Source of the DNA: a virus
Reading direction: 5' to 3' (one strand)
DNA: 64,000 bases
IMG/VR virus record: IMGVR_UViG_3300045110_000277
Coordinates: 1-64,000 of that record
The translations under genes and the position numbers were made by a program. Shown here piece after piece: positions 44-64,000 of the stretch. The notes beneath the pieces were generated by a model. It was not told where the DNA came from and searched no databases. It saw nothing but the letters and a program-made list of their open reading frames with translations. Each line of letters begins with the position of its first letter. Within the stretch, counting starts at the first letter, position 1.

Positions 44-274
44 AGCGATCTTGGGCGACTGGACCCGCTCCTCTGGGTCCGCGTCGCTGGACGCATCGCG
101 GGCCAGCATAGCGGCGAGCTCAAGGCGAGCGCACGCGCTCACGGGCTGCGAACGACCGTTGGCATCCCGACCAGAGGTCGGCCCGGAGCTCCCCACATTC
201 TGGTATCGCCGCAGGTCAGAGGCGTGAACTGGCCGGTTAGTCCGTGCGGCCCAAGCCGTTGCCGATACCCAGGC

Positions 275-490
275 ATGGCCTGTCCGAGCGGGTGCGACTG
301 CTACTGCAAGGCGAGCTGCCACGAGGCGCACTACCGCCTGCACGAGCAGCTACACGACGTGCTGGAGTGCCGGGCGAGGACGGCGGCGGAGGAAGCGGGT
401 CCCGTGGCGCGAGCGCCGGGGTCGCCGGGGGCGGGTCAGACGCCCGACAGCCACGGGACCCGAATCCTTCCTACGTCCGAGCCGGCTTGA
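275..490 (+). CDS. Small Cys/His-rich hypothetical protein
   Basis: MACPSGCDCYCKASCHEAH...; ATG 6 nt after a GCCGATAC element. Confidence 0.45.
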   Translation: MACPSGCDCYCKASCHEAHYRLHEQLHDVLECRARTAAEEAGPVARAPGSPGAGQTPDSHGTRILPTSEPA

Positions 491-596
491 GCGCAAGTGC
501 GGATGCCAACGAGCGTTCGCAGCACCTCCGCGCGAGATCCCGTCCGGGCGAATCTCCCACTCAACGTGAGAATCCGTGGCTCTGCGTGACCTAGCT

Positions 597-622
597 CAGA
601 TCAGATCCGGAGTTGCCGATCC
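597..622 (+). promoter_or_regulatory. Putative sigma28/WhiG-type promoter for the lysin operon
   Basis: CAGAT-N13-GCCGATCC upstream of the 661 and 804 genes. Confidence 0.55.
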
Positions 623-660
623 ACCTAGGACCTGCCCGAGAAAGCGTCCTAGGAGGACCT

Positions 661-807
661 GTGACCGAACCCGCGCTCGACCCGGACCTCGCCATCGGCG
701 AGCTGGCCGAGACCGACAACACCGCCAAGGCGTCCGACGGCGACCAGCACGTCGCCCAGGAGCCCGGCAGCGCGTACGACCCGACCGGTGAGCCGGTGGA
801 GGCGTGA
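661..807 (+). CDS. Small acidic hypothetical protein
   Basis: AGGAGG RBS before GTG at 661; GTGA overlap with the endolysin start. Confidence 0.7.
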   Translation: MTEPALDPDLAIGELAETDNTAKASDGDQHVAQEPGSAYDPTGEPVEA

Positions 808-1577
808 CCACCGCCCAGCAGTACCTCGCGGTCCAGCGCGGCCAGCTCGGGCAGGGCGAGACGCCCGACGGGTCGAACCACACCATCTACGGCGCCTTCA
901 CGGGCTACCAGAACCAGCCCTGGTGCGGGTCCTTCCAGCTGTGGGCCGCCCATCAGGCCGGTCTCGTGCTGCCGCCCAACGTCAGCCCGGCGCTGGTCTA
1001 CACCCCGGCCGGTGCCGCGGCGTACCAGAAGGACGGTCGCTGGTCGGCCACGCCGATGGTCGGGGCCCACGTCTTCTACCGCTGGCCCGGCTCCAGCCGG
1101 ATCGACCACGTGGAGTGCGTCGAGTCGATCCTGCCCGACGGCAGCTTCTACGCCCTCGGCGGGAACGTCTCGAACCGGGTCATGCGTACCCACCGGTCCC
1201 ACGACAGCGTGGTTGGCTTCGGCCTGCCGGTCTACACCATCGCCCCGCTGCCCCCGGGCCCGCCGCCGGCGCCGCACCCGGTCGGCACGACCCGCGTCTC
1301 GCTGAGCGCGGTCATCGCCGCGGCCAAGCACGACGCCCCGGCGGCCGGTCAGCCGACCGAGCACAAGGTGGACGTGCTCCCGGTGGAGAGGGCGCTGGCC
1401 GCTGAGCACCTGCTGGCCAGCCAGTACGTGGACGGCTCCTTCGGCAAGATGACCATCGCGGCGTACGCGGGCTGGCAGCGCCACTGTGGCTACCAGGGCG
1501 TGGACGCGAACGGCGTGCCTGGCAGCGCCTCCCTGATCAAGCTGGGCGCTCGCCACGGGTTCGTCGTCGTTCGGTGA
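804..1577 (+). CDS. Endolysin: CHAP-like amidase/peptidase domain plus C-terminal peptidoglycan-binding domain
   Basis: QPWCGSF (catalytic Cys), DHVE (His), GGN; Pro linker; VDGSFGKMTIAAYAGWQR...ANGVPG PG-binding repeat. Confidence 0.85.
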   Translation: MTTAQQYLAVQRGQLGQGETPDGSNHTIYGAFTGYQNQPWCGSFQLWAAHQAGLVLPPNVSPALVYTPAGAAAYQKDGRWSATPMVGAHVFYRWPGSSRIDHVECVESILPDGSFYALGGNVSNRVMRTHRSHDSVVGFGLPVYTIAPLPPGPPPAPHPVGTTRVSLSAVIAAAKHDAPAAGQPTEHKVDVLPVERALAAEHLLASQYVDGSFGKMTIAAYAGWQRHCGYQGVDANGVPGSASLIKLGARHGFVVVR

Positions 1578-4900: not shown

Positions 4901-5170
4901 ATGGCACTCACGCCTGGCACGTACACGCAGGGCTCAGCGGTCAGCGACGCCGAGACCGGCTGGGGCGACAGCTCGGCTGACAGCAAGACCGGCGGCCCGT
5001 ACTTCCAGGACGCCGTGATCTCGCCGGTCACCGTGGCCGACGGCACGCTGCGCCAGCGGTTCGACCTCAAGTGCTACCCGCAGAAGGGCATCACCGCCCT
5101 GGGCACCGACTCCGACGGTGCGGCGGCTCCGGCCACCGCGAAGACCGTCTACGGCGCCACCAGCCACTGA
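4901..5170 (+). CDS. Hypothetical (possibly virion) protein
   Basis: GAGGAG RBS, ATG, strong GC3 bias. Confidence 0.7.
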   Translation: MALTPGTYTQGSAVSDAETGWGDSSADSKTGGPYFQDAVISPVTVADGTLRQRFDLKCYPQKGITALGTDSDGAAAPATAKTVYGATSH

Positions 5171-5213
5171 CCCTGCACCTGCCAACGAGCGTTCGCACGC
5201 CGAGGAGACCCAG

Positions 5214-8465: not shown

Positions 8466-8948
8466 AGGGCGCCTCTCCTTCATCCATCAGCCGTAAGCCG
8501 TAGTTGCTGCGAAGTCCTCGAACCTAGGCCGGTAACGCCAAGGTCACAACCCCCTGTCGGCGTGTCGGCCATTCGGGTGAACTTCTAGCCCAAATGATCA
8601 CTGAAGACGGCTCTGGTGCGGATGCCAACGACCGTTCAGAGCACCTCCACTCGCCGATTCGGCTCTCAACGCTCGTTCAGAGCACCACCACGTGCGTTCT
8701 GGTGCTGGCGTGTCCGTGTATGTCCGATTTCCCTTGCCCCGCAACAAGATCAAGAGCTTCTGGTGCGGATGCTTGGCATGTTTGGTGGCCCGTGCTAGCC
8801 TCCGGCCTCCGGCGTGAGCGAGGAACCGAGCGGTCGACGGGAAAGCGCCAGCGTCAAAGGGCAAGAGCTTGGATCCATGGATCTAGGTATCCACCGCGCG
8901 TGCGCGCGAACGATTTGACTCTTTGAGCACGGACTGCGTTACCGTCGT

Positions 8949-9782: not shown

Positions 9783-10013
9783 ATGGCTGGACGCGCTCTG
9801 CTCAAGCAGGGCAAGGACCGCCGCAGCGCGATCTTGAAGTTCACTCGGGCCTACATCAGGAAGAACGGGTACGGCCCGTCCGTGGCGGAGATCGCCGAGG
9901 GCGTCGGCCTTGCCAGCAAGACCGCTGTGCGGCATCACCTTGCCACCCTCCAGGAGGAGGGGAAGGTCGAGATGACCCCTGGCCGCTACCGCTCGCTTCG
10001 CCTCGTGTCCTGA
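9783..10013 (+). CDS. LexA-family winged-HTH DNA-binding domain only (no S24 peptidase/dimerisation domain)
   Basis: ILKFTRAYIRKNGYGPSVAEIAEGVGLASKTAVRHHLATLQEEGKV...PGRYRSLRL matches the LexA N-domain pattern; stops after about 76 aa. Confidence 0.85.
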   Translation: MAGRALLKQGKDRRSAILKFTRAYIRKNGYGPSVAEIAEGVGLASKTAVRHHLATLQEEGKVEMTPGRYRSLRLVS

Positions 10014-11329: not shown

Positions 11330-11434
11330 CACGACACGCCGTGGCGCAAGTAGTGCGCCAATGACGGGCTGTGACCCTTAGGCCACCTACAGTCGGCATG
11401 TGCAGACGCCAACGCTCGTTCGCGGGACCACCGC

Positions 11435-12315: not shown

Positions 12316-12859
12316 CGGGGCGCGCCAGGCACAGTGGGAGCAGGCCCGCACCCTGTACCCGAGCACCGAGTACCAGTCGCGGGTCTGGGCGGACTACTTC
12401 GACGAGCATCCGGACGTGCTGACCAAGCTGCTCGGGGACGTGTACCGGGTCTACAAGACCGAGGAGGCCAAGCGCGCCGGCGTCTCCAACCCGCAGGGTG
12501 GCCGGCGTCGTTCGCACGTGAACGGCAACCTGGACGAGCTGTGGGCCATCCTGACGCCGAAGTTCTCGATGGACCCGTTCCCGGTGGCGGTGCGCGAGCT
12601 GATGGGCAAGAAGTCGGTGCGCCAGTTCGCTGCGGACGTGGGCATGGACCACCGCGAGCTGAGCCGGCTGCTGAACGGCGCTCGCCGCCCCAGCATGATC
12701 CACTGGCTGGAGGTGATTGCCCGCGGAGCTGATGTGCATCCGGCGTTCTTCCTGGAGTGGCGGACGGCAACGCTCGTTGGCATCATGGCCGACGCCTTCG
12801 CGTCGCAGCCGCATCTGTCGATCACCGCGCTGAAGGCTCTGGGGAGGCGACCGGCGTGA
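12308..12859 (+). CDS. XRE-family HTH DNA-binding protein
   Basis: SVRQFAADVGMDHRELSRLLNGARRPS...LEVIARGADVHPAFF. Confidence 0.75.
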   Translation: MADGARQAQWEQARTLYPSTEYQSRVWADYFDEHPDVLTKLLGDVYRVYKTEEAKRAGVSNPQGGRRRSHVNGNLDELWAILTPKFSMDPFPVAVRELMGKKSVRQFAADVGMDHRELSRLLNGARRPSMIHWLEVIARGADVHPAFFLEWRTATLVGIMADAFASQPHLSITALKALGRRPA

Positions 12860-14828: not shown

Positions 14829-14956
14829 CTCTAGGGAGTTCTGGCCGGGTCTAGGACCGGTGTTGCGGCGGAACGCAACAGGCTGCGAACGGCCGTTGGC
14901 ATCCCGCGTCTTCGTCGACTGGGAGCAGATCACCACCAAATCGGAGCAGATCCGAG

Positions 14957-17191: not shown

Positions 17192-18798
17192 TGGACACCA
17201 AGGACCGGATGGCGAACGGGACGTACCCGATCACCAACCAGAAGCAGGCCAAGGCGGCCTGGGACCTGCGCGGGTCCAGCAAGACGTACTCCGAGGCCGA
17301 GGTGGTCTCGCACATCCGCGCGCAGGTCGCCAAGCACGGGCTGGAGATGCCCGCCGACAAGGTGGCCCCGAAGCAGAAGGCCGCTGCTGTCCCGCCGCAC
17401 GGCTTCATCTGGCCCGAGGGGATGCCCGACTGCTCGCTGTGCGACCGGACGGCCAACGATCCGGTCCACGTCAACCCGCCCCGCAACCCGCAGCGGTTCG
17501 GGGAGAGCACGTACCGCACCGAGGCGTCCGACAAGAACCCGAACCCGTCGATGCCGGTGCGCTCCCACGCCTACACCCCGAACGTGAACATGATCACGAA
17601 CCGGGTGCTGTGCCAGGGCTGCGGGGAGAACCTCGGCAACGGCATCCACGTGGTCGGGATGCCCGCCGGGATGGTCCCGTCCAGCTCGAACTCGGGCATC
17701 TGGGGTGCCGGGCAGACTGCGGTGGGCGCCGGGGGCTCACCGTTCGGCGCCGGGCCGCAGCTGGCGGAGCTGTCCGCGCATCGGTTCGAGCCGATGGACG
17801 GCCACGACGGCTGCGGGCTGGGCTGTGGGCTGCCGAGCTCGGACGAACTGCACACGCGAACGCCCGTTCGCACCCAGCCGAGGCAGCAGGCCGACCTCTC
17901 CGACGGCTCCGCCTACGACCAGGCGCAGCGCGCCCTGGCCCTGATGGCCATCGCCGACGAGGCGCTCGACCAGGCCCAGCCGCTGCTGGCTGCCGCCCTC
18001 GGGATGCCCAACCCGGACTCCGACGATGAGCCGGTGCGGGTGGCTGCCCAGGTCGCCTTCGTCTCCGAGATCGGTCAGAAGCTGGTCTTCGCGGCGCCCG
18101 GGTCCACCGGCTTCGACGTGTCGTCGCTGCCCCGGGAGATCGCCGCCGGCTTCCAGCGGGCGAGCGCGGCCAACCCCTACAACCTGTGGGTGACGGGGCG
18201 CTACGTCGAGGCGGACCGGCCGAACCGCAACGCGGCGTACTGGTCCACCGCTGACCTGGAGGTCGGCCAGCCGTCGGTTGCGCACGGGCCGATCAACTGG
18301 AACCACCAGGAGAAGGAGATCATCGGCTGCATCGCGGCGACCGAGCTGGTCAAGGTCGAGCGCCAGGCCGCCTCCGACGTGGGCAGTCACATCGTCGCGC
18401 TCGCCGCGGTGTGGGGCTTCATCTACCCGGAGCGGGCCCGCGCGGTGCAGAAGGCGTCGGAGGACCAGAAGCTCTGGTACTCGATGGAGTGCATCAGCCG
18501 GGAGGTCGCGTGCCTGTCGGGTGACTGTGGTGTGGTGCTCCCGTACCGCGACTACATGACGCGGCAGACCTCGCGCTGCGAGCACATGCTGGGCGGCGCA
18601 CCGCGCCGGTTCGTGGACCCGGTGTTCGGCGGCGGGGCCATGATCGTCCCGCCAGTACGGCCCGGGTGGGCAAATGCCGATGCACGGGTGATGAAGCAGG
18701 CGGCCGCGTTGGCCGAACGACAGGCAGCCGCCTTCGGCGACCTGACCACCTCAGAAGCCGAGCTGCTGGTGGCCCAGCTGATCGGGACAGGAGAGTAG
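17191..18798 (+). CDS. Capsid maturation protease-like protein with multi-module N-terminus
   Basis: PNRN...PINWNH...IIG...WYSMEC C-terminal domain; position between portal and scaffold. Confidence 0.55.
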   Translation: MDTKDRMANGTYPITNQKQAKAAWDLRGSSKTYSEAEVVSHIRAQVAKHGLEMPADKVAPKQKAAAVPPHGFIWPEGMPDCSLCDRTANDPVHVNPPRNPQRFGESTYRTEASDKNPNPSMPVRSHAYTPNVNMITNRVLCQGCGENLGNGIHVVGMPAGMVPSSSNSGIWGAGQTAVGAGGSPFGAGPQLAELSAHRFEPMDGHDGCGLGCGLPSSDELHTRTPVRTQPRQQADLSDGSAYDQAQRALALMAIADEALDQAQPLLAAALGMPNPDSDDEPVRVAAQVAFVSEIGQKLVFAAPGSTGFDVSSLPREIAAGFQRASAANPYNLWVTGRYVEADRPNRNAAYWSTADLEVGQPSVAHGPINWNHQEKEIIGCIAATELVKVERQAASDVGSHIVALAAVWGFIYPERARAVQKASEDQKLWYSMECISREVACLSGDCGVVLPYRDYMTRQTSRCEHMLGGAPRRFVDPVFGGGAMIVPPVRPGWANADARVMKQAAALAERQAAAFGDLTTSEAELLVAQLIGTGE

Positions 18799-19837: not shown

Positions 19838-19896
19838 CGCCCTGCGGCCCGACGGCCGTTGGCATCTCCAGTGGGTGCCAACGGCCGTTCGCACGT

Positions 19897-24736: not shown

Positions 24737-24742
24737 GCCGCC

Positions 24743-25663: not shown

Positions 25664-25667
25664 GCTG

Positions 25668-26606: not shown

Positions 26607-26607
26607 C

Positions 26608-26634: not shown

Positions 26635-26641
26635 GACGAGC

Positions 26642-35450: not shown

Positions 35451-35498
35451 CGGAGCAGACGCCAACGACCGTTGGCACCGAGACGAGGAGGTGACTGG

Positions 35499-40505: not shown

Positions 40506-42965
40506 ATGACTCTGTTCACGCGCACCGCCTCGGACAGCGCCGCTGTCTCCGAGTCGGTTGCGCGCGTGTGCAGGCACCCGCGCAGCACGTCGGACAGCGT
40601 GCCCGTCGCCGAGGCGCACACCCGGTCTGTCCACCGGTTCAAGACGACCTCGGACTCGGCGGTGGTGTCCGAGTCGAACATCATCCTGGGTCCGCTGATC
40701 AACCTGAGCGTGCCGGTCGGTGGGGTGAACGCGGCGACCGGCCAGCTGCCGACGGAGGTGCTCGGCGCGTACTACGAGGTGGCCCTGGCAGCGGCCGTTG
40801 GCGCCTACGCTTCCGGCCAGCCGGTCGGGATCTACCTGGGCGCGCTGAGCTACATCTTCGACTTCGACTGCCCCGAGGTGCAGGTCGGTGGCCGGCTGCC
40901 GTCGCTGTTCGTCGGCACCCCCGGGGTGGACGGGGACTTCTTCGGCCTGCCGATCATCTTGTCCGGGCTCAGTGGCACCGGGACGTTCAGTCTGCAGGGT
41001 GCCACGGTGGAGACCGGCGAGCAGGACGCGCTGAACGCCCTGGAGCCCACCGGCGGCCGGGTGGTGGTGCCGACCGCGATCCAGATCGGCGCGACGGTCA
41101 ACGTGCCGGACGCGACCCCGGCCAGCTTCACCGCGGTGCAGGCCACCATCGGCCCGCTGACGGTGCGCCGGGTGTTCTCCTCCAGCCTGCCCACGCACAT
41201 GCCCGCGGGCATCGCGGGCATCGTCGCGTTCTACTCGTTCAAGTCGAACACGACCATCCAGGACCTCATCAACGGCGTGCATGACGCGGCGGTGCGAACG
41301 CTCGTTCAGAGCCTGCCCAACGGCACGTACCTGACCAGCTACCACGAGCCCGAGAACGACATGGACGGCGACACCTTCGTCGCGCTCATGGACCACCTGT
41401 ATCCGCTGGTGAAGTCGATCAACCCGACGATCCAGTTCGGCCCGGTCTACATGACGTACTGGTGGCGCCCGTCGCTGTCGGGCGTGGGCAAGCCGGGCAA
41501 CGGTCACAACCCGCAGCCGAAGGACTCGTGGGAGCCGCACGACTACGACTTCCTGGGGTGTGACAACTACGCGCAGCCGCCGCAGACCCCGCTGGAGCTG
41601 GCCTCCGACACGACGTTCCAGAACTGGTACACCTGGGCGAAGGCGAAGGCGAACGCGGCCAACGTGCCGGTGTGCATCGTGGAGTACGGCGCGGGCGCGA
41701 TCACCTCGGGCATGACCGGGGGCGAGCGGGCCACCATGGAGGCTGCTCGCGCGGTCGTCATCGCCAACGACGGCACGTACGTGGCCAGCGAGCCCACCAT
41801 CGGCATGTGGCTGCTGTGGGACGGCACCGGCGCTGCTGGTGACTGGTTCCTGCACGACAGCGCCAGCCAGGCCGCGTGGGCGGCCATCGCCTCGGGCGGC
41901 AGCACCACCGGCACGGCGTTCGCGGGCATCGGCGACAAGAGCATCTGGATGCAGTTCACCGCGCCGCTGGACGGCACCTTCACCTTCACGGTGGACGACG
42001 CCTCGACGCCGGACTACCGGCTGGCCATCTACCACGGCGAGGCCATCGACGACCCGGCGATGGTGCTGCTCGGCGAGGTGTTCGCCAACGGCTCGACGGA
42101 CCCGACGCTCTCGGTGGAGTTCAGCCGGGGCGAGTCGTACTACGTCTACGTCAACAAGGTCGACGGCACGAGCACCACGTACCCGCTGCAGAGCTACACC
42201 TGGTCGTTCGGCCCGGCCGTGCTCGGCCCGGTGCTGACCATCGACCCGAACATCCTGGACCGGGTGCCAACGGGCCTTGTCGTCTCGTTGGTGAACATGC
42301 TCGACGGCGGTGAGGCGGTCGACTTCACCCTGGTCGGCAACGCCAGCGTGCTGGCCACCTTGCAGGCCGACGAGCAGGGCACCATCGTCGGCGTCACGGT
42401 GCCGCTGGGTCTGCCGCTGTCGGCGGGCACGTACACCCTGCAGGCCACCGGCGAGTCCTCCGGCCGCGTCGGCTCCTGCACCTTCCAGCTGCTCAACGAC
42501 CCGATGACTCGGCCGGCGCCGCCGCCCGACGACGTGCCGGTCTCGCCGCCAACGCAGGTTGGCATCCAGCGGTGGGTGTTCCAGGACCCGATGCCCGGCG
42601 GCCTGGCCACGCTGGTGTTCCCGGCGAACCCGGAGAAGGCGAGCAGCTTCTACGCCCCGGTGCCGGTCACGGTCGAGCACACCGTCGCGCAGGACGGCAC
42701 CGCGGTGGTCTGGGAGGGCGCACCCACGGCGCTGGCCGCGCAGTTCAGCGGCTACACCACCGACGAGACGTTCTACCTGGCGGTCGAGGCGTACGCCGCG
42801 CTGAACCGCAAGTTCTACCTGATCGACCACCGCAGCAAGGTGTGGGTGGTCGCGCTGACCAGCTTCGGCCCGGACCGGCGCATCGTGCAGCCGGTGCATC
42901 AGACCGACTCGTCGTGGGCGTGCAACTACACCGCGACCGTGATGATCTTTGCGGGGCCGATGTGA
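40506..42965 (+). CDS. Multidomain minor tail protein: RTxSDS repeats + GH26-like domain + distal-tail-like C-terminus
   Basis: YHEPEND, DFLGCDNY, IVEYG; C-terminal RWVFQDP...F.ANP..G......LIDH. Confidence 0.65.
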   Translation: MTLFTRTASDSAAVSESVARVCRHPRSTSDSVPVAEAHTRSVHRFKTTSDSAVVSESNIILGPLINLSVPVGGVNAATGQLPTEVLGAYYEVALAAAVGAYASGQPVGIYLGALSYIFDFDCPEVQVGGRLPSLFVGTPGVDGDFFGLPIILSGLSGTGTFSLQGATVETGEQDALNALEPTGGRVVVPTAIQIGATVNVPDATPASFTAVQATIGPLTVRRVFSSSLPTHMPAGIAGIVAFYSFKSNTTIQDLINGVHDAAVRTLVQSLPNGTYLTSYHEPENDMDGDTFVALMDHLYPLVKSINPTIQFGPVYMTYWWRPSLSGVGKPGNGHNPQPKDSWEPHDYDFLGCDNYAQPPQTPLELASDTTFQNWYTWAKAKANAANVPVCIVEYGAGAITSGMTGGERATMEAARAVVIANDGTYVASEPTIGMWLLWDGTGAAGDWFLHDSASQAAWAAIASGGSTTGTAFAGIGDKSIWMQFTAPLDGTFTFTVDDASTPDYRLAIYHGEAIDDPAMVLLGEVFANGSTDPTLSVEFSRGESYYVYVNKVDGTSTTYPLQSYTWSFGPAVLGPVLTIDPNILDRVPTGLVVSLVNMLDGGEAVDFTLVGNASVLATLQADEQGTIVGVTVPLGLPLSAGTYTLQATGESSGRVGSCTFQLLNDPMTRPAPPPDDVPVSPPTQVGIQRWVFQDPMPGGLATLVFPANPEKASSFYAPVPVTVEHTVAQDGTAVVWEGAPTALAAQFSGYTTDETFYLAVEAYAALNRKFYLIDHRSKVWVVALTSFGPDRRIVQPVHQTDSSWACNYTATVMIFAGPM

Positions 42966-44260: not shown

Positions 44261-46434
44261 GGCTCGTGACCGACGACACCAACGCCGCGTGGCAGGCCGC
44301 TTTCAAGGGCGGTGACACGCGACCGGTCGTTCGCGCGACCATCCAGAAGATGGACGTGAAGCTGTGCCCGTACAAGCGGCCCACGCAGAACGGGGTCGCG
44401 GGCAACAGCGGTGTCTTCGCCAGCGCCATCTTCGGCCAGGACTTCCAGCCGGTCGAGCTACCCAACCTGGCCAGCGTGAAGTGGACGCGCTCGGTGGACC
44501 AGGACGTGGCCCAATGCGACATCGTGATCTGGAACACCGAGCGCCTGGCGGTCGGCGAGGTGCCACCCGACGACGTGAGCTTCGACAAGCCCGGCTACAT
44601 GACGTTCAACCGCGGCGTGGACCCGGCCGCCGTCAGCCGGTGGGGGTACGCGGCCAATGGCTGGCGTGACCTGCTGGTGCCCGACCGGATCATCCGCACC
44701 TTTGAGGGCTACGGCTTCGACCCGTCAGTCACCCCGGAGGCCGACCCGAACCTGTACCCCTCCGGTGTGTGGCTGATCGACGACGTGGAGTACAGCGCCG
44801 ACGGCACGATCAAGGTGTCCTGCCGCGACATGGGCCGGGTGCTGCTCGACCAAATCTTCTTCCCGCCGGTCGTGCCGTTCAGCGAGTACCCGTTCACCTG
44901 GATCCCGGACCAGACGGTGCCCGGCCCGCCGAAGCTGACCACCTCCAGCGGGTGGAAGCGCCCGGTGTACGAGACCGACTCGGGCATCCCGTACATCGGC
45001 AAGGGCTTCACCGACGGGTCGTTCCCCTACGTCGACTCCACCGGTGCGGTGCTGGGCCACCATGGGCGCTACGCCTTCGACACCAACGTGGCGAGCTACT
45101 GGCTCTCGGTCGGCAACGAGGCCAGCTGGAGCTCGGCGTTCGAGTACGTGCAGGGTGCCATCAGCGGCGCTGTCCACGCGGTGCAGCTGAAGACCTGGGG
45201 CGGTCCGTACCTGGTCTACGTCAGCCTGTGGGATGGCAGCAAGTGGCTGGGCAGCCGCAAGATCCCTTACCGCGCAAGGGTTGTGGACACCAACGCCGAT
45301 ATCCCGTTCGTCGACTCGTTCACCGCGGGCAAGTCGACAACGACCGTTCGCGCCCTGCCCAAGGCGTACGCCGGCATCACCAAGATCCGGCTCACCTTCA
45401 CCGACCTCTACAACAGCGGCATCGGCGAGTTCAAGTACCGCGCGGGCTGCTACGACATCCAGGTCAACGAGTCGGTGGTCACCAGCACGCCCACCACGAT
45501 GGTCATCGGGAACATGGCCGACTACACCGACATCGTGAAGTGGGTCTGCGCGTGGGGCGGGTTCTTCTGGCCCGACGAGTCCACCGGCTTCGACTATCTG
45601 ACCAACGCGGACGGGACGACAACGAACGTTGTCGCCTCCACCCCGGATCCCGTGCTGCCCACTGGGCGGGTGTGGGGCGACTTCGAGGGGACGGGCACCA
45701 ACAGCCTGATCCCGCTCACCCCGGACATCTGGGACAAGAAGCCGCTGATGGACTCGATCACGTACGTGCGCAACATCGTCAACTTCATCTTCTTCATCGA
45801 CGAGACCGGCGGCGTGGTCTGGCGGAGCCCGAACATCTGGCAGGAGGGCAACTACATCGGCGGTGGGCTCAACGACGCCGATATCGGCCGGACCACCGAG
45901 GGCCGCACGTCCACGGTGTACGTCATCGACGAGCAGGACACCATCCTGGGGCTGCGGCCCAAGCTGAGCAGCCGGGCGATGCGCGAGCGGTACTTCGTGG
46001 CCAACACCGACGGCGCGTTCGGCGCGGTGTCACCGCCCATCGGCAGCGTCAGCTACAACCCGTACCCGTCGGGGCTGCGCCGGGTGGCCGGCTGGACTGA
46101 CCAGCACTTCTCCACGCAGGCGGAGTGCCAGATCATGGCCGACCTGATCGCGGTCCGCTCGATGTTCGAGTACCGCACCAACGTGGTCACCGTGCCCGGC
46201 AACCCGGGCCTGCAGGTGGACGACCAGGTGCGGATCATGGAGCGGGTCACCGGCGAGACGTACCTGCACTACGTCCGGGGCATCACCAGCGACTGGGACG
46301 CCAAGAGCGGCAAGTGGACGTACGAGATCGAGACCCACTGGCTGGGCCTGACGCCGTTCAGCAACTGGGCGTTCGACCCGTCGCTGCTGTCGGCTGAGAC
46401 CAAGCAGTACCTCACGGCATTGGGGAAGATCTGA
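44257..46434 (+). CDS. Baseplate hub/Tal-like tail protein
   Basis: Position; CRDMGR.L.D; C-terminal PGNPGLQVDDQVRI.E...YVRGITS. Confidence 0.7.
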   Translation: MRLVTDDTNAAWQAAFKGGDTRPVVRATIQKMDVKLCPYKRPTQNGVAGNSGVFASAIFGQDFQPVELPNLASVKWTRSVDQDVAQCDIVIWNTERLAVGEVPPDDVSFDKPGYMTFNRGVDPAAVSRWGYAANGWRDLLVPDRIIRTFEGYGFDPSVTPEADPNLYPSGVWLIDDVEYSADGTIKVSCRDMGRVLLDQIFFPPVVPFSEYPFTWIPDQTVPGPPKLTTSSGWKRPVYETDSGIPYIGKGFTDGSFPYVDSTGAVLGHHGRYAFDTNVASYWLSVGNEASWSSAFEYVQGAISGAVHAVQLKTWGGPYLVYVSLWDGSKWLGSRKIPYRARVVDTNADIPFVDSFTAGKSTTTVRALPKAYAGITKIRLTFTDLYNSGIGEFKYRAGCYDIQVNESVVTSTPTTMVIGNMADYTDIVKWVCAWGGFFWPDESTGFDYLTNADGTTTNVVASTPDPVLPTGRVWGDFEGTGTNSLIPLTPDIWDKKPLMDSITYVRNIVNFIFFIDETGGVVWRSPNIWQEGNYIGGGLNDADIGRTTEGRTSTVYVIDEQDTILGLRPKLSSRAMRERYFVANTDGAFGAVSPPIGSVSYNPYPSGLRRVAGWTDQHFSTQAECQIMADLIAVRSMFEYRTNVVTVPGNPGLQVDDQVRIMERVTGETYLHYVRGITSDWDAKSGKWTYEIETHWLGLTPFSNWAFDPSLLSAETKQYLTALGKI

Positions 46435-48271: not shown

Positions 48272-48314
48272 ACACATGAGATGCGAACGCTCGTTGGCGG
48301 GGAGGAACTGGGTC

Positions 48315-48827: not shown

Positions 48828-49189
48828 TGGCTGACCACGCAGCGCCCGGCACCGGATGGCTGAACCTGCTCGACAAGGTACCTCCGGCCGTGCGGCACGC
48901 CCTCATCCTGCTCATCGGTGCTGGCCTGAGCTACGCCTCGGCGCACCTGCCGGACCTGCACCTCCAGCAGCCGTACCCGAACTTGCTCGGCGGCGCGCTG
49001 GCGATGCTCCTGCTGATCGTCACCCCGCTCACCTCGCAGTACGGCGTGGGCAAGAAGGTGGACGACGCGGCCCAGGCCCAGGCGGACCTGGACGCAGCCG
49101 TACAGCTCGTGCTGGGGGCGGCCAAGGACGCTGCAGCTGCCAAGCTGGGCGCGCCAACGGACGTTGCCGTCCAGCCTCCTGTGGCATAG
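48827..49189 (+). CDS. Holin (putative, 2 TM)
   Basis: Two TM helices, TPLTSQYGVG; end of the tail operon. Confidence 0.65.
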   Translation: MADHAAPGTGWLNLLDKVPPAVRHALILLIGAGLSYASAHLPDLHLQQPYPNLLGGALAMLLLIVTPLTSQYGVGKKVDDAAQAQADLDAAVQLVLGAAKDAAAAKLGAPTDVAVQPPVA

Positions 49190-49619: not shown

Positions 49620-50047
49620 CTCACATCGTGGACAATCTTGAGCCCGAGTCTGGGTCCATTTGAGCGTAGACGGGCTGCCAACGCTCGTTGACATAGGTAC
49701 TTTGGGCTAGGACCTTGCGCTCTGTCGGACCCTGTGGTTAGAGTCCGGGTCACTCGTTCGGCCGGTTCGCATCCCCCGTCGTTCCGGCTGGATGGGGCTC
49801 CTCCCGGGAGAGCGGGTCTCGCTTCACCCCGGGAGGGGCATCAACTTCACAGGTCGGTGACGACCACCAGGCACGCGGCAAGAGCCGGTGCGTGGGCCAT
49901 CCCCGAGAAGACTCGGAGGGCGGCGATCAAGGTAGGGCTTCGGCCCTGTCCTGGTCGTCGCCCTTTGCGTTACTCGGGAGCGGCCATGCACACGCTCGGC
50001 GTCATTGCGTTCGTCATCACATGCCTGTTCATTGCGGCCCTCGCGCT

Positions 50048-50949: not shown

Positions 50950-51591
50950 ATGTCCCTCAAGAGCGAGCTCTACAAGGAGCTCGGTGAGCTGGAGGACGCC
51001 AACGGGCGTCTGCGTGCTGCGATGGCTTCCTGCGAGCAGGAGCTGACCGAGACCCGGCTCGGTCGGGACGAGGCGCTGGCCCGTGAGTCCGACGCCAACG
51101 CCCACAACACCGCGCTGCAGGAGTCGCTGGAGCGGGCACGCCTGCAGCGCACCGACCTGCGTGAGCTGCTGCTGGCGGCGCGAACGACCATCAGCGAGCA
51201 GAAGCGTGACAACGAGCGTTTGACACTGGAGGGCAAGCTCCTCCTCGACCGCATCCAGGCGGTCCACACGCTGACCTGCCCGGACTGCTGGCCGGACGGC
51301 GTGATGTTCACCGGCCTGGGCCCGACCGGCTACGAGACGGAGACCGGCAGGGAGGTCCAGCAGGCCACCCCGTGGAGCCCGTGCGACAGGCACACCGCGG
51401 AGGTGCGCCACGCGGAGTTCCAGAGCCGCATCCTCGTGATGCCGTTCGAGCCGGCGCCGGGCCAGGCCGAGGACGGGTCCATCGACGACGCCGAGACGTA
51501 CTTCGGCGAGGGCACCCACCTGGGCCTGGCCGAGCAGGCGGGCAAGGCGTTCCGTGACGCGGCGAACGCCGAGGGGATGCCGCAGCCGTGA
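50950..51591 (+). CDS. Coiled-coil protein with C-terminal Zn site
   Basis: Heptad-rich N-half; CPDC...CDRH. Confidence 0.65.
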   Translation: MSLKSELYKELGELEDANGRLRAAMASCEQELTETRLGRDEALARESDANAHNTALQESLERARLQRTDLRELLLAARTTISEQKRDNERLTLEGKLLLDRIQAVHTLTCPDCWPDGVMFTGLGPTGYETETGREVQQATPWSPCDRHTAEVRHAEFQSRILVMPFEPAPGQAEDGSIDDAETYFGEGTHLGLAEQAGKAFRDAANAEGMPQP

Positions 51592-52778: not shown

Positions 52779-54218
52779 ATGCTGTTGATCAAGACGACCG
52801 GCATCGAGGACTACCTCGATGGCGGCGAGGGTCGGGTGAAGGCTCTGATCCAGGGCCAGCCCGGCTCGGGCAAGACGCGCTCGGCGTCGTTCTGGCCCAA
52901 GCCGCTGCTGCTCGACTGCGAGGACGGCCGCATGTCGGTCGCTGACCGGGGCATCGACTACGCCCGGATCGAGTCCTCGGAGGACATGAAGGCCGCGCTG
53001 AAGCTGGCGTGGATGGAGACCCAGAAGCCGGTCGAGGAGCGGCGCTGGATGACCCTGATCATCGACACGCTGGACTCGTACCAGCGGATCGTGATCCAGG
53101 AGCGGCTCAAGGTCACCGGCAACGAGGGCCTGTCGGGCTGGGCGGACTGGGGCTACCTCGACGGGAAGATGCAGACGCTCGTCAGCGCGCTCCAGGCGCT
53201 GCGCATGAACGTCGTCGTCAACCTCCACGTCAAGGAGACCAAGGTCGGCGAGGACGAGGAGGGCAAGGGCGGCTACCTCGTCCAGGGCCCGAAGCTGAAG
53301 GGCGACCTGCGCGAGCAGATCGGTGCCGAGTTCGACCTGGTGGGCCACATGGGCACCACCTTCGAGAGCAACGGCGAGGAGCGCACGCAGGTCCGAGGCG
53401 TCCAGTGGCACGCCACGCCGGATCGGCCGGGCCTGAAGGACCGCTCGGGCACGTTGCCGAAGTGGACCCCGGTCACCTTCACCGACGACGACTACTACGG
53501 GCTGTTCTCCCGGCTGATCGAGAAGGCTGAGACGCTCCAGGAGTCCCGGGTGGTGCAGGAGGTCGAGACCGAGGCGCTGCCTCAGCCGGTGGGCCCGATG
53601 GCCGGGGGCCCGGTGGCGGCCAAGAAGGCTGCGGCTGCTCCGCCGGCGAAGAAGGCCGCAGCGGCACAGGTGCCAACGCCCGTTGACACCCCGCCCGCAG
53701 CTGCAGCTGTGCCGGCGGCACCTGCAGCTCGGGCTGTTCCGGCTGCAGCCAAGCCGGTCATCGGTGGCGCGAGTTCTGCGCCAGCCGCTGCACCCGTCGA
53801 GGCCCCAGCAGTTGTGGCCGAACCGGTGGCGGAGCCCCAGCCTGAGCCTGAGCCGACGGTCGAGGAAGCCGTCGCAACGGTGGAGGAGGCGCTCGGAGGC
53901 ACGGTTATCTCCGAGCCCGCACCTGCCGATGGGCCAACGGTGACACCTGCCGAGGCACCTGCTGCCCCGGCCCCGGTCGCACCGGCTGCTGAGTCCACCG
54001 ACTTCCCCGCCTGCGGTCAGGGCCGGGACGCCGACGTGGAGAACCCCGTACCCGGCTGCGGCAAGGTGCTGCGGATCGGCAAGGGACCTGACGGGTCGCT
54101 CGTCATCGACGACCCCGACGAGAACCCGGACCTCATCGAGATCGCCGGGCTGAAGACGCGGACGTGGCTGTGCAACAGCGACTTCGCTACCTACCGCGCC
54201 AACGCGAAGAAGGGCTGA
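52779..54218 (+). CDS. Sak4-like AAA_24 ATPase/recombinase with Pro-Ala linker and C-terminal Cys domain
   Basis: GQPGSGKT, LLLDCEDG, LIIDTL, KDR; adjacent to SSB. Confidence 0.8.
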   Translation: MLLIKTTGIEDYLDGGEGRVKALIQGQPGSGKTRSASFWPKPLLLDCEDGRMSVADRGIDYARIESSEDMKAALKLAWMETQKPVEERRWMTLIIDTLDSYQRIVIQERLKVTGNEGLSGWADWGYLDGKMQTLVSALQALRMNVVVNLHVKETKVGEDEEGKGGYLVQGPKLKGDLREQIGAEFDLVGHMGTTFESNGEERTQVRGVQWHATPDRPGLKDRSGTLPKWTPVTFTDDDYYGLFSRLIEKAETLQESRVVQEVETEALPQPVGPMAGGPVAAKKAAAAPPAKKAAAAQVPTPVDTPPAAAAVPAAPAARAVPAAAKPVIGGASSAPAAAPVEAPAVVAEPVAEPQPEPEPTVEEAVATVEEALGGTVISEPAPADGPTVTPAEAPAAPAPVAPAAESTDFPACGQGRDADVENPVPGCGKVLRIGKGPDGSLVIDDPDENPDLIEIAGLKTRTWLCNSDFATYRANAKKG

Positions 54219-56701: not shown

Positions 56702-56702
56702 C

Positions 56703-57142: not shown

Positions 57143-57606
57143 ACGACTACACCCGTTGGCAGCACCACGACCCGACGACCCACGGCGAGCTGTACGACAT
57201 GCTCCGCTGGATGTTCGGGCTCGGCTCGTGGGATGAGGTCACCGCCGAGGAGCCGTACTTCAAGGCGCGCGGCACCGAGATGGGCAAGCTGAAGCGGACG
57301 ATGACCGCCCGCCAGGTGGGCATCCCCGAGGCCGTGCTGGCCGCCCGGTACTGCTACCGGCACCGCATCCCGGTGCTGTGGACCACGGAGATCTTCAAGC
57401 ACCTGGCTGCTGCGCGCCGCGAGGCCGCTGAGTTCGCCCGCGGTGACATCCAGCGGGAGATGGAGGCCGCCATCAGGTGCGAACGCTCGTTGGCACGTGC
57501 TTCGAGCGACGACTGGGTGAGCCGGCTGACCCGGGCCCAGGGCGACTACCGAAGGGAGGTGCTCGACTCATGGCGGCTCAGCCAGCAGACGCAGGCGGTG
57601 TCCTGA
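57139..57606 (+). CDS. Hypothetical protein
   Basis: ATGA overlap, GC3 bias. Confidence 0.65.
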   Translation: MNDYTRWQHHDPTTHGELYDMLRWMFGLGSWDEVTAEEPYFKARGTEMGKLKRTMTARQVGIPEAVLAARYCYRHRIPVLWTTEIFKHLAAARREAAEFARGDIQREMEAAIRCERSLARASSDDWVSRLTRAQGDYRREVLDSWRLSQQTQAVS

Positions 57607-57788: not shown

Positions 57789-58333
57789 GAGCGAAACTGC
57801 TCGACCCGACAGAGCACTACCCGATCCCGATCATGCACCGCCAGCGGTTCCGGGGCTCCGGCATCACGCTGGGCTGCACCCACGCGGACTGCCGCTGGGT
57901 GCTGGACCGGCAGCTCATCCTGGGCGAGGACCTGAAGGAGCTGTTCGCCCTGTTCCACCCGCACGAGCCAACGGACGTTCGCAACGTGGGCATCCTCGGA
58001 CATCCAGGGGCCGCCGACGGCCTGGACCTGCCGCAGCGCAGCGAGGACGCGCCGATCCCGTACGAGCCGGTGGTCATCGAGCAGCCGGTGGTCACGGTGC
58101 GTGAGCCGTTCGTCGAGGCGGTCGAGGCGCTGAACGACCGGTACCCAGCGAAGAAGCAGAAGACCGCGAAGGCCCCGTGTCACAACGACCGTTGCAGCCT
58201 GGGCTACAACCATCTCGGCCGCTGCGACGCCAGCACGACCAAGGTTAGCGACTGCCCGTGTCCAGCGACGATGCGGTACTCGCTTCGGAAGATCTACTAC
58301 CCGGAGTGCCCGGTGCATGGGGCCGACTCGTGA
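57785..58333 (+). CDS. Cys/His-rich hypothetical protein
   Basis: Several C/H clusters (CPC...CPVHG). Confidence 0.6.
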   Translation: MRAKLLDPTEHYPIPIMHRQRFRGSGITLGCTHADCRWVLDRQLILGEDLKELFALFHPHEPTDVRNVGILGHPGAADGLDLPQRSEDAPIPYEPVVIEQPVVTVREPFVEAVEALNDRYPAKKQKTAKAPCHNDRCSLGYNHLGRCDASTTKVSDCPCPATMRYSLRKIYYPECPVHGADS

Positions 58334-59692: not shown

Positions 59693-59892
59693 CGCCGGAG
59701 GGCGTCCGCAGCAAGGAGAACGCGCGAACGCTCGTTCGTGAGGCAGCCGTGGAGCTGGAGCTGGCCATCCACTACGCCGAGCGGCACCCGTCAGACCCGT
59801 CCGGGTCGCATGACCTGGACTACCGCCAGGACAACTTCGGTGAGGCGCTCGACTGCTACGTGCGCTTCGTGACGCAGGGAGTAACCACGTGA
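59689..59892 (+). CDS. Hypothetical protein
   Basis: Coupled overlaps. Confidence 0.5.
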   Translation: MTPEGVRSKENARTLVREAAVELELAIHYAERHPSDPSGSHDLDYRQDNFGEALDCYVRFVTQGVTT

Positions 59893-60218: not shown

Positions 60219-60475
60219 TGAACCGGGCGGACATCCTGGCCGAGGCGGCTCGTCTGACCACCGAGGACCGGGACAAGGACTACGGGGACCCGCTGACCAA
60301 CCACAAGCGGATCGCCAAGCTGTGGTCGGTGGTGCTGGGGCACAAGGTGACCCCGGCCCAGGTGGCGCTGTGCATGGTGCAGGTCAAGGTGGCCCGGCTG
60401 ATCGTGACGCCTGACCACACCGACAGCAACGTGGACGGCGCCGCGTACCTGGCCATCGCAGGGGAGATCGTCTGA
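60218..60475 (+). CDS. DUF6378-like phage protein
   Basis: IL.EA.....DR...YG.P..N..RIA.LWS......VALCM..VKVAR......DS.VD.A.Y. Confidence 0.8.
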   Translation: MNRADILAEAARLTTEDRDKDYGDPLTNHKRIAKLWSVVLGHKVTPAQVALCMVQVKVARLIVTPDHTDSNVDGAAYLAIAGEIV

Positions 60476-60816
60476 TGGCCAAGGTGATCGCCGGGGTCTG
60501 CGACGAGTGCGGTGCCGCGGCGCCTCACCCGCAGGTCCACGAGGGCTGGCACGCACAGCTGGAGCGGCTCCTTCGGGTGCCAACGAGCGTTGGCGCCAAG
60601 GTTGCGCCAGATCTCGCCGGCGGGATGCGGTCCGGCTTCGGCCAGGGCAGGTACCCGATCCCGCAGGAGGAGCACGAGGTACCGACCGACTTCATCGCCC
60701 CGCACCCGACCGAGCCCGCTCGGGCACCGTTCGAGGACAGCAGCCCGGAGGGCATCCACGCCGCACAGGAGGCGCTCGCGCACCTGGCACCGCGGGGCGA
60801 GGGGATGGACCGGTGA
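60475..60816 (+). CDS. Hypothetical protein
   Basis: CDECGA...H..WH. Confidence 0.55.
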   Translation: MAKVIAGVCDECGAAAPHPQVHEGWHAQLERLLRVPTSVGAKVAPDLAGGMRSGFGQGRYPIPQEEHEVPTDFIAPHPTEPARAPFEDSSPEGIHAAQEALAHLAPRGEGMDR

Positions 60817-61671: not shown

Positions 61672-61955
61672 CGAGGCCGATGAGTAGGTGCGTCCACGTC
61701 TGGCTGGGTCACATCTGCCTGGCGTGCGGCGCGTGGGACGGCAAGGACATGGAGGGCAGCTCTGAAGAACCTGCCGGCGGCCCAGGTGGCTGACCTAGAC
61801 GCCAACGACCGTTCGCAGGGGCCGACATGCCTGGAGGTGTTGGTCTTCAGGGCTGGCGAGGTCTTCCCGGAGGACCACGGCGACATCGTGATCGGCTGCG
61901 ATCTGCTCATCGACGGGCACGTGGAGCACGCGGGCGACGGCTGGAGGTGGACCGG

Positions 61956-62330: not shown

Positions 62331-62551
62331 CGTACCGCGAGCCTCCCGAGGGCTGGTTGCAGTTCGGCACGCACGCCGTGCTGCCCATCGTCCCGCCGCT
62401 GCTGTTCAGCGAGGAGCGGGATGAGGTGGGAGATCCGCTCTGGGAACGGGCGTTGACACCCAAGGATGTCGCCGACTTCCTCTGGAGCATCGGCCACGTG
62501 ACCTCGTTCACCGCCGTGCGCGACCACTACAAGCTGAAGTGGACCTCGTGA
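62327..62551 (+). CDS. Hypothetical protein
   Basis: GTGA overlaps. Confidence 0.45.
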   Translation: MTYREPPEGWLQFGTHAVLPIVPPLLFSEERDEVGDPLWERALTPKDVADFLWSIGHVTSFTAVRDHYKLKWTS

Positions 62552-62711
62552 GCCGGCACGCGCGGGACGCCAGCGACCATCCGTACGCGGAGGCGTTGGA
62601 GTGCCTCGACGAGCTGACCCAGATGCTGCTGGACACCGCGCGGGACGTGGAGTGGGCCAGGCAGGGCGGCTGTTACCCGTGGGAGTACCCGAAGCCTGGA
62701 GGTAGGCACGC

Positions 62712-63458
62712 ATGACAGACCTGGCCGAGACGTGGGCCGAGTACGGAGCCACCCGCAGCCCGGTGGCGAGGGACGCCCTGATCTTGGCGTACCGCCCGCT
62801 GGTCAGGTACGTGGCGGCCCGGCTGGCCCAGGGCCTGCCAGCGTCCGTTGAGGTCCAGGATCTCGCCAGCTACGGGGTCTTCGGGCTGATCGACGCCATC
62901 GAGAAGTACGAGATCGGGCGGGTGAAGTTCGAGACGTACGCGATCCAGCGGATCCGAGGAGCCATCCTCGACGAGCTTCGAGCCCTGGACTGGGCGCCAA
63001 GGTCCGTTCGCAGCAAGGCTCGTGCCATCGAGCGTGAGCTCAGCCGGCTGGAGCACGAGCTCGGGCGCACCCCGTCGGAGGAGGAGCTGGCAACGGCCGT
63101 TGGCGTTTCGGCGCAAGACCTGCGCCGCAGCTTGAGCCAGCTCCGCCTGGCCCAGACGGACAGCCTGGACCGCAGCGTGGCCGGGCCGGACGACACGGGC
63201 TCGACGCTGGCCGACCGGGTGGAGGACCGTTCGGACATCACGTTGACTCCGCAGATGGAGGAGGCCGGACGCCTGCTTTCTGAGGGTATTGCTCGACTTC
63301 CGGACCGCGAACGCACGTTCATGGCCCTGTACTACTTCGAGGGCCTGACGCTGGCGGACATCGGCGTCACCCTGCGGGTCTCGGAGTCGCGGGTCTGCCA
63401 GCTCCATACCCGGGCGGCGGTGGCGCTCCAGCGGATCCTCGCTGGGCAACTGGTCTGA
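62712..63458 (+). CDS. whiG: RNA polymerase sigma factor, FliA/WhiG (sigma28) family
   Basis: LILAYRPLVRYVA.R...GLP..V...DL.SYGVFGLIDAIEK...KFETYA..RIRGAILDELRALDW.PRSVR; LYYFEGLTLADIG..L.VSESRVCQLH. Confidence 0.93.
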   Translation: MTDLAETWAEYGATRSPVARDALILAYRPLVRYVAARLAQGLPASVEVQDLASYGVFGLIDAIEKYEIGRVKFETYAIQRIRGAILDELRALDWAPRSVRSKARAIERELSRLEHELGRTPSEEELATAVGVSAQDLRRSLSQLRLAQTDSLDRSVAGPDDTGSTLADRVEDRSDITLTPQMEEAGRLLSEGIARLPDRERTFMALYYFEGLTLADIGVTLRVSESRVCQLHTRAAVALQRILAGQLV

Positions 63459-63482
63459 GTTCATCGCCCGTTTGGCCGATGA
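63457..63482 (+). promoter_or_regulatory. Putative sigma28/WhiG-type promoter immediately after the sigma gene
   Basis: GAGTT-N13-GCCGATGA. Confidence 0.6.
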
Positions 63483-63523
63483 CCCTGGCGTTGACTCGGG
63501 CCACCCGTATGAGGGGGCAAGCC

Positions 63524-63772
63524 GTGGGGTTCGCAGCAAGCATCGAGAAGGCCAAGGCTAAGCAGGACACCAGGAACCGGAAGTGCTCAGTCCTTCTGGC
63601 GCTGGAGAGCATGACTCCGAAGGACCGGGCGGCGCTGACCGCCAGCCTGCTGGACGACGAGATCCGACACGCGACCATCGAGACGGCGCTGCGGGAGTCG
63701 GGGATCACCTACTGCAAGGCCGGGACCATCTCCCGGCATCGTTCCGGTGGCTGCTCGTGTGGTGACTCCTGA
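63524..63772 (+). CDS. Small HTH/Zn protein
   Basis: C.V...L......I..AL...G......I.RHR.G.CSC. Confidence 0.6.
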   Translation: MGFAASIEKAKAKQDTRNRKCSVLLALESMTPKDRAALTASLLDDEIRHATIETALRESGITYCKAGTISRHRSGGCSCGDS

Positions 63773-64000
63773 TGGACCTCACCCCGGAAGCGATGGCGGC
63801 CCGGCAGCTGATCGCGGAGCTGCGCACGGCGCTCGTTGGCACCCAGCGGGAGCTGCGCAAGCAGAAGGACCGCACCGACCTGCTGGTCGAGGCCGTGATC
63901 CAGGGCTGCCGCGAGGCCATCCTCGCTCAAGGCCCGCTGCCAACGGTCGTTCGCACCAAGACGGCTCGCCGACCTGCAGCTGCCGGCAAGCCGGAGGTCG
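63772..64000 (+). CDS. Partial gene running off the window end (coiled-coil N-terminus)
   Basis: TGATG coupling, open to 64000. Confidence 0.55.
   Translation, partial: MDLTPEAMAARQLIAELRTALVGTQRELRKQKDRTDLLVEAVIQGCREAILAQGPLPTVVRTKTARRPAAAGKPEV

Follow-up and report, generated by a model that had tools for sequence, protein, structure and literature searches.

The first 64 kb (hereafter the window) of the IMG/VR virus record IMGVR_UViG_3300045110_000277 (G000; 86,079 bp, 68% GC, ~74% complete by estimate) carry a dispersed array of an 18-bp palindromic site, which is probably the docking site of a two-fold symmetric, dimeric protein on double-stranded DNA. The core of the site, AACGNNCGTT, has 30 copies in the window, where dinucleotide-preserving shuffles give 0.40 on average and never more than 2, and 43 copies in the full 86-kb record, which amounts to one copy per ~2 kb. 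When up to two mismatches are allowed, the 16-mer GCSAACGNNCGTTSGC is found 57 times in the window, with 2.7 copies expected. The 30 core positions listed in a first-pass annotation, made from the window sequence alone, are all exact matches to AACGNNCGTT, and the seven one-mismatch copies that it gave as examples are real. The word "probably" is meant for the core claim only, namely that a dimeric DNA-binding protein docks on the array and that selection on the DNA keeps it up, and rests on the symmetry of the site and the signs of selection; the protein that reads the site and the role of the array are graded separately below.

The copies in the record yield a matrix with the symmetrised 18-bp consensus T-G-C-[C>G]-A-A-C-G-N-N-C-G-T-T-[G>C]-G-C-A, whose outer letters, TGC[C>G] and [G>C]GCA, agree with the flanks described in the first-pass annotation. 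The spacing of the two arms is strict: AACG-N2-CGTT is present 43 times in the record and every other spacing 0–3 times, and the inner G..C is found in 43 of the 50 AAC-N4-GTT sequences. The outer letters of the two arms are not coupled. At position -1 both arms agree in 22 of the 43 sites, with 21.9 expected, the agreement at positions -2, -3, and -4 is likewise at chance level, and there is no covariation between the half-sites at these four variable flank positions across the 43 sites. Half-sites that vary independently point to two identical protein subunits, each reading TGCSAACG, and not to base pairing. A hairpin in RNA or single-stranded DNA, be it a terminator, a cruciform, or a site of processing, is accordingly very improbable. 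A stem of 7–8 bp could form, and several copies lie in short spacers between same-direction genes, directly 5' of ribosome-binding sites; however, with the arms agreeing at chance, about half of the stems would be interrupted by C-C or G-G, it is the sequence of the conserved letters that is kept and not their pairing, and the loop would have only 2 nucleotides (nt). Moreover, no T-run was seen after the sites and no Rfam family matched within the window.

Many sites lie within genes. The whole record has 27 in-gene cores, compared with 0.81 ± 0.86 (maximum 4) over 300 codon-preserving synonymous shuffles, a ~33-fold enrichment. The in-gene copies tend to share the frame xxA-ACG-NNC-GTT (11 of 17 in the window, 19 of 27 in the record), and the same bias recurs in the relatives G009 (27/37), G001 (22/28), and G041 (20/34). 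This frame forces CCA or CGA and GTT codons, and the common peptide [P/R]-T-x-V-[G/R] becomes a site mainly via third-position choices (CCA or CGA, and GTT). The rare codons CCA, CGA, and GTT had been recognized in the first-pass annotation; its view of the in-gene copies as lying in different frames needs correcting, as they are unevenly spread and 19 of the 27 share one. A common frame, similar pentapeptides, and a length of 18 bp, a multiple of three, might also be expected of a by-product, such as a coding repeat, a compositional bias, or the insertion of tiny mobile elements. This explanation is practically refuted: the proteins that hold the sites are unrelated, a third of the sites are intergenic, synonymous shuffling abolishes the sites, and motif-free relatives at equal GC have none. 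In addition, the orthologue alignments at the sites are gapless and show no 18-bp insertions, hence the sites are not insertions.

The in-gene sites turn over rapidly. Among 57 aligned orthologous positions only three keep the site, all of them in G001. The RuvB-like gene illustrates the point changes involved, its peptide PTGV being encoded by CCA ACG GGC GTT in G000 and G001 versus CCC ACG GGC GCT in G037, which is motif-free. Even the amino acids have changed to accommodate the site in the 12308 gene, as seen by comparing its peptide with 16 aligned orthologues. By contrast, the intergenic site 5' of the scaffold/capsid genes (core 19880 in G000) keeps its position in most relatives. Five of them (L042–L045 and L060) carry a tandem pair there, and the partner in G000 has one mismatch, and a GCCGAT(A/G) element follows 11–36 nt downstream. 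In-gene turnover set against fixed intergenic sites separates two classes, a few operator-like sites and many replaceable ones. The first class would consist of a few position-fixed intergenic sites with the look of classical operators, often in tandem at 36–42 bp, located 5' of the capsid operon and of the operon of a small LexA-type protein described below (mini-LexA). The second would comprise in-gene and spacer sites, made and lost by point mutation where the peptide permits it cheaply, with selection acting on their number and spread and not on single sites.

The sites are unevenly placed along the genome. Intergenic DNA (12.3 kb, ~14% of the record) holds 16 of the 43 sites and is ~3.5-fold denser in them than coding DNA. 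As the first-pass annotation had stated, half of the cores in the window (15 of 30) fall in 48–64 kb and only 2 in 20–40 kb. Among the 412 sites of 18 motif-bearing genomes, which add up to 1.11 Mb, nine pairs of neighbours are 36–42 bp apart, while other neighbours less than 400 bp apart number 45, versus 72.5 under random scatter. Site spacing is over-regular in two regions, each picked after looking: the leftward arm of G000 (coefficient of variation 0.41, P 0.0006) and, in G009, the first 30 kb (P 0.002). Such regular spacing, the deficit of close neighbours, and a density that is selected while positions turn over, as for Chi or uptake sequences, would suit regular marks for DNA transactions, read by a nickase or endonuclease, by a packaging or replication-loading factor, or as a Chi-like exonuclease attenuator. 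The palindrome reads identically from both DNA ends, and the lineage encodes Ku, a ligase, a RuvB-like protein, RusA, a PD-(D/E)XK nuclease, and an HNH protein. Nevertheless, we regard an enzyme site as quite unlikely. The named DNA-transaction genes all occur in motif-free relatives too, the position-conserved tandem pairs in promoter regions fit operators better, and the Chi and nick sites known to us are asymmetric.

A search for the exact 18-mer in 2.9 million IMG/VR contigs returned 25 stretches. Seven are from the lineage of G000 (G001, listed twice, G002, G003, G007, G011, G012, and G016), with the core enriched in G001–G003, and 17 of the other 18 have at most three core copies each. 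Relatives were compared on a broader set, of ~100 loci gathered by capsid-protein and terminase-alignment searches. Some 40 related IMG/VR contigs, spanning 49–70% GC, have the same core, and it is enriched in 29 of the 29 records related by capsid protein, with 4–55 copies against 0–2 of a reversed control pattern, as well as in additional relatives recovered through the terminase. The near-complete 130-kb relatives G013 (50% GC) and G015 contain 21 and 23 copies, respectively, and the more distant motif-bearing genomes G036, G041, and G048 contain 19, 49, and 9. The flanks obey a common Y-R-N-N-AACG rule, with TGCS in G000, TAGW in G013, and GTTS in G015. Syntenic relatives of similar GC can be devoid of the core (0 copies in G031c5, 74 kb, G037, 103 kb, G039, and G040) or nearly so (1 copy in G032, 2 in G034), and at least six syntenic relatives are without the array. 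No other outstanding dyad was found in the motif-free G031c5, G034, G037, and G040, which were scanned whole, and CCGG-N5-CCGG, CCGG-N2-CCGG, and TCGA-N2-TCGA, considered as substitute palindromes in relatives, turned out to be codon-level repeats in glycine-rich or acidic coding sequence. Taken together, the strict spacing, the independent variation of the half-sites, the ~33-fold enrichment over shuffles, the origin by point changes, and the lineage-wide core argue for selection on the sites at the DNA level. A dimeric, sequence-specific protein would thus dock on the 18-bp palindrome, the array being maintained throughout the lineage. The binding network under DNA selection that the first-pass annotation proposed is well supported, if indirectly; the coating or silencing purpose that it attached to the network is a conjecture.

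The candidate reader is mini-LexA, a protein reduced to the DNA-binding winged helix of LexA. It matches Pfam PF01726 (E 6.5e-17) and ends at the DNA-binding domain, with no S24 peptidase domain; it aligns across the LexA N-terminal domain of solved structures (residues 7–69 of E. coli LexA) and matches small PHROG families, one of which is annotated as a transcriptional repressor. With a lineage-specific hidden Markov model, its gene was detected in 13 motif-bearing genomes (G000 and 12 relatives), where it is syntenic, 5' of the terminase genes, and was not found in the motif-free G031c5, G037, and G040. An exact site is located at most 1.2 kb 5' of the gene in 9 of the 10 informative loci and a tandem pair in four, which looks like autoregulation; bacterial lexA genes also have tandem sites 5' of their own gene, comparable to those 5' of the mini-LexA operon. 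The AAC-N4-GTT geometry is that of Gram-positive SOS boxes (CGAAC-N4-GTTCG), with which the phage sites also share a C two positions before AAC. In contrast to the SOS box, the base adjoining AAC is more often C than G here, with formal SOS boxes in 6 of the 43 sites, and C, A, or T dominate at this position in relatives; the inner G..C is invariant, whereas the SOS-box spacer is loose. Unlike an SOS regulon, moreover, the array has dozens of in-gene sites, and mini-LexA is without a cleavage/dimerisation domain.

Several observations weigh against mini-LexA as the reader. Several motif-bearing genomes lack its gene, namely the near-complete G013, with 21 sites, G041, with 49 sites at 81% completeness, and G048, and so does the L130/L185 subclade in the syntenic region, which is fully covered there; for this reason mini-LexA is a candidate only. 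Conversely, there are weak homologues in G034, which is motif-free, and in its kin. In most half-sites the base adjoining AAC is C, while LexA requires G at this position, and the LexA N-terminal domain by itself is not known to dimerise. Furthermore, in two presence/absence screens of the G000 and G036 proteins against the motif, none tracked it cleanly. As far as sequence can tell, mini-LexA (9783-10013) is our best guess, albeit a tentative one, and some other phage protein is just as possible; a host protein is somewhat less likely, and a reader that is not a regulator-type protein is unlikely. If mini-LexA does read the site, the reader would be a cleavage-proof LexA-type winged helix of the phage, replaced by a small stand-in phage protein or a host repressor in lineages without the gene, and would represent a new phage use of the SOS repressor fold.

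Other candidates were rejected. Among the helix-turn-helix (HTH) proteins named in the first-pass annotation, the one at 9783 stays as an imperfect candidate; the GerE/LuxR pair (56661-57142), found in G000 alone, and the TerS-like HTH protein at 12308, adjoining the terminase, are ruled out. The latter occurs in motif-free relatives and has no motif-discriminating residues, and the same is true of the conserved 11453 protein. No ParB_N (PF02195) match was found in 8 motif-bearing records, which disposes of a ParB/KorB-type reader, and no TetR_N match over the cut-off in 20 phage records, which disposes of a phage-encoded TetR. The MoxR-vWA-DUF6744 module is absent from G031c5 but present in the motif-free G034 and G040, and the two matches from the G036 screen belong to families represented in motif-free genomes as well. 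Covariation between the flanks and the recognition helix of mini-LexA could not inform the choice, the flanks being too alike (Y-R-N-N) across relatives.

A reader encoded by the host, either a PaaR-type TetR repressor or another conserved regulator that the array exploits or titrates or by which it is targeted, is a minority possibility. The published operator consensus of the TetR-family PaaR of Thermus thermophilus is CNAACGNNCGTTNG, with two operators and a catabolic regulon (cited in PMC6651687 and PMC9493321). This 14-bp consensus, which comprises the core and inner flank, matches the inner 14 bp of the phage site letter for letter; the site is thus readable by a TetR-type dimer, which keeps a host protein among the possible readers. 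Since these phages have no TetR_N domain, a TetR-type reader would be host-encoded. PaaR comes from an unrelated bacterium, however, and there is no TetR domain in these phages, which makes the resemblance a lead only. A conserved host factor would also fit the constancy of the core and of the Y-R flank rule at 49–70% GC, the lack of any phage protein that tracks the motif cleanly, and the 15 copies of AACGGCCGTT in the unrelated G053, which has no mini-LexA. On the other side, 17 of the 18 non-lineage stretches with the 18-mer have at most three cores, meaning that unrelated phages of the same habitat are without an array, and syntenic relatives of similar GC have no sites. The flanks differ by genome (TGCS, TAGW, GTTS), suggesting readers that co-evolve with the phage, and dozens of sites for a catabolic repressor would bring the phage no evident gain. 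For most sites canonical actinobacterial LexA can be excluded, as G is present in both half-sites in only 6 of the 43.

The viral contig G053 (IMGVR_UViG_3300037722_000853, 53.9 kb, 60% GC; L227–L229) has 18 core copies, of which 15 are AACGGCCGTT, fully symmetric and with A/T adjoining. It shows no capsid kinship to the lineage and no LexA domain, and its array may be an independent one with a similar core. As an independent handle on the reader it failed, having in common with the lineage only an Acb2-like protein and a 142-residue uncharacterised protein. As to the host itself, a 115-residue protein of a motif-bearing relative (L185, 4796-5143) has a C-terminal end (..SGRLPEVLIQEYLAVH) that resembles the DNA-binding motif at the C terminus of Lsr2, which hints at an actinobacterial host. 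A host among the Rhodothermales, suggested by one match in a genome collection, was dismissed because the contig is probably mis-binned in that metagenome-assembled genome (3.7 Mb); the latter has 15 sites versus 12 copies of the control pattern, and its phage relative is itself motif-free.

Concerning the role, the positions of the sites suggest that the array may serve genome-wide control of transcription during lytic growth, a reading that we consider plausible while holding it at less than even. The sites would act as operators at key promoters and otherwise as roadblock or titration sites, the latter being concentrated in the early, replication, and leftward arms, with few among the late virion genes. 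Most sites are distant from any promoter, which speaks against a transcriptional role. A more specific and rather unlikely version is a private, SOS-box-like network, in which the uncleavable LexA domain or its stand-in would read dozens of self-made sites. It might work as a replication-coupled timer, multiplying genomes soaking up the protein until late promoters are released, or else the sites might mark the phage's own DNA apart from that of the host; if true, it would be the first mechanism for dispersed phage palindromes. No integrase was found in G013 and G015 (tyrosine or serine), in G001, or in the ~74% complete G000. A single relative, G009, encodes a tyrosine integrase (26033-26548), in contrast to G013 and G015, and lifestyle may vary within the lineage. 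The lack of an integrase in the near-complete G013 and G015 makes a stoperator-like silencing of the prophage unlikely as a general role.

The closest precedent is found in the Cluster O mycobacteriophages (Corndog and others), which have a 17-bp dyad repeat, TGTTCGGNNNCCGAACA (Cresawn et al. 2015, PMC4351075). In these phages, which are not obviously temperate and carry Ku, the repeat is present in more than 30 copies, denser in one arm, a third of them in genes and most off promoters; the authors infer a dimeric binding protein, to which no function is assigned, and raise the distance from promoters as an objection to a transcriptional role (PMC4351075). Tens of copies of one short perfect dyad throughout the genome, with 43 in 86 kb here and 9–55 per relative, a denser arm, a placement partly within genes and for the most part off promoters, and the presence of Ku are common to both, and the array of G000 belongs to this already recorded kind of dispersed dyad and is not a new category. 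The dyad itself differs, 8-2-8 with the core AACG-N2-CGTT here and 7-3-7, TGTTCGG-N3-CCGAACA, in Cluster O, and the phages are unrelated, as a comparison of the G000 terminase with 50,697 phage records gave no Cluster O match. Coding sites make up two thirds here, with one preferred frame, and the lineage is wider and more divergent, with rapid positional turnover and relatives without the motif. Lineage-wide conservation, turnover, frame bias, and motif-free relatives are comparative facts beyond the Cluster O account. Dispersed phage palindromes have been on record since the Cluster O report of 2015 without an assigned reader or purpose. The present lineage offers leverage on them, with the same core at 49–70% GC, fast turnover, few fixed operator-like sites, and syntenic relatives without the array. 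These contrasts narrow the search for the reader, and synthetic DNA and expressed proteins would be enough to address the question, with no need for host culture.

Other systems are more remote. The stoperators of Cluster A phages (L5 gp71 system), to which the first-pass annotation likened the array, silence the prophage through asymmetric sites that follow the direction of transcription (summarised in PMC4351075). The two have in common a density of ~0.5 sites per kb genome-wide, in spacers and genes, stoperators being read by one phage protein; here, however, the sites are symmetric palindromes, and the near-complete G013 and G015 are without integrase. KorB-OB, ParB-parS, Noc-NBS, and MatP-matS likewise combine dispersed palindromes, some in genes, with one dimeric protein acting replicon-wide, but their site sequences are unrelated to this one, and ParB_N is lacking in the 8 motif-bearing records. 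The repressor of the Streptomyces phage phiC31 also binds dispersed palindromes, the conserved inverted repeats (CIRs); phiC31 is temperate and has ~18 sites, mostly intergenic.

Table 1. Palindromic sites and the candidate reader gene in the window. Each site is given by its 18-bp span and has an exact core unless stated; the strand of the symmetric sites is marked by a dot. Gene coordinates, here and in the text, are approximate and come from a gene caller based on GC content at third codon positions (GC3) that was made for this analysis, as do the in-gene spans.
Feature	Span	Strand	Core start	Location and remarks
Site	147..164	.	151	intergenic
Site	504..521	.	508	intergenic
Site	5180..5197	.	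5184	short spacer, after the stop of 4901-5170 and before the start at 5214
Site	8623..8640	.	8627	first member of a tandem pair with 41-bp spacing; divergent intergenic region, 5' of mini-LexA operon
Site	8664..8681	.	8668	second of the same tandem pair, 5' of mini-LexA operon
Site	11407..11424	.	11411	~38 nt 5' of gene at 11453
Site	12765..12782	.	12769	within 12308-12859; local peptide unlike all 16 aligned orthologues
Site	14884..14901	.	14888	intergenic
Site	17855..17872	.	17859	within 17209-18798; CGAAC in both half-sites, formally an SOS box too
One-mismatch site	19847..19864	.		GACGGCCGTT; 29 bp 5' of site 19876..19893
Site	19876..19893	.	19880	5' of scaffold/capsid operon; GCCGATAT (-10-like) 25 nt downstream
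Site	29074..29091	.	29078	within 27545-29434
Site	35460..35477	.	35464	short spacer directly 5' of tape-measure gene
Site	41293..41310	.	41297	within 40566-42965
Site	45335..45352	.	45339	within 44266-46434; aligned position without site in 9 relatives
Site	45617..45634	.	45621	within 44266-46434; aligned position without site in 13 relatives
Site	48282..48299	.	48286	~25 nt 5' of start at 48315
Site	49152..49169	.	49156	within 48890-49189
Site	49676..49693	.	49680	intergenic
Site	51207..51224	.	51211	within 50950-51591; weak flanks
Site	53671..53688	.	53675	within AAA_24 gene 52779-54218
Site	57478..57495	.	57482	within 57139-57606; kept in G001
Site	57966..57983	.	57970	within 57785-58333
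Site	58180..58197	.	58184	within 57785-58333; weak flanks
Site	59723..59740	.	59727	~18 nt 5' of start at 59749; CGAAC in both half-sites
Site	60578..60595	.	60582	within 60475-60816
Site	61800..61817	.	61804	~32 nt 5' of start at 61840
Site	62441..62458	.	62445	within 62357-62551
Site	63088..63105	.	63092	within sigma-factor gene 62712-63458; kept in G001
Site	63306..63323	.	63310	within sigma-factor gene 62712-63458; weak flanks
Site	63938..63955	.	63942	within 63772-64800
Mini-LexA	9783..10013	+		76 residues, LexA DNA-binding winged helix only; candidate reader

The sequence of G000 was traced by a sequence-holder search to metagenomes of soil and rhizosphere only, and no RNA run is among the sequencing runs listed with it. 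The best match of its terminase among the 50,697 phage records has 40% identity, indicating that there is no close cultured phage. The window encodes the modules of a siphovirus-like virion and a replication module with a primase-helicase, an AAA_24 protein, and a PD-(D/E)XK nuclease, as well as a WhiG/FliA-type sigma factor (62712-63458). GCCGAT(A/G) elements, which resemble the -10 element of sigma-28/WhiG promoters, are found at 4872, 19915, 22142, 23093, 29846, 32551, 40502, and other positions of the window, 15–64 nt 5' of rightward genes; in intergenic DNA, the forward strand has 16 and the reverse strand 3. They were considered as part of the palindrome system and set aside as a separate feature, because the palindrome adjoins only 2 of ~16.

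Past the window, the leftward arm (L093, positions 64001-84000 of G000; 6967-8031 and 9921-17406 of L093) encodes, in this order, a RuvB-like ATPase, DUF6744, a vWA protein, a MoxR AAA+ protein, an ATP-dependent DNA ligase, and Ku. The block from RuvB to Ku is kept in most relatives, motif-bearing and motif-free alike. Within the window, an 81-residue protein (52301-52546) contains an Acb2/Tad1 hairpin domain (E 8e-18) and is likely a sponge for cyclic-nucleotide defence signals; Acb2-like genes are present in G009 and in the unrelated G053 too. The region 24600-27550 has 72.6% GC, a reversed GC skew, few confident gene calls, and several one-mismatch sites. A RusA-like Holliday-junction resolvase and a small RyR-domain protein (10949-11329 and 14496-14828) flank the terminase region, and the TerL frame is in two or three separated pieces in G003, G011, G015, G016, and G021, which suggests inteins, introns, or homing-endonuclease insertions in these five relatives.

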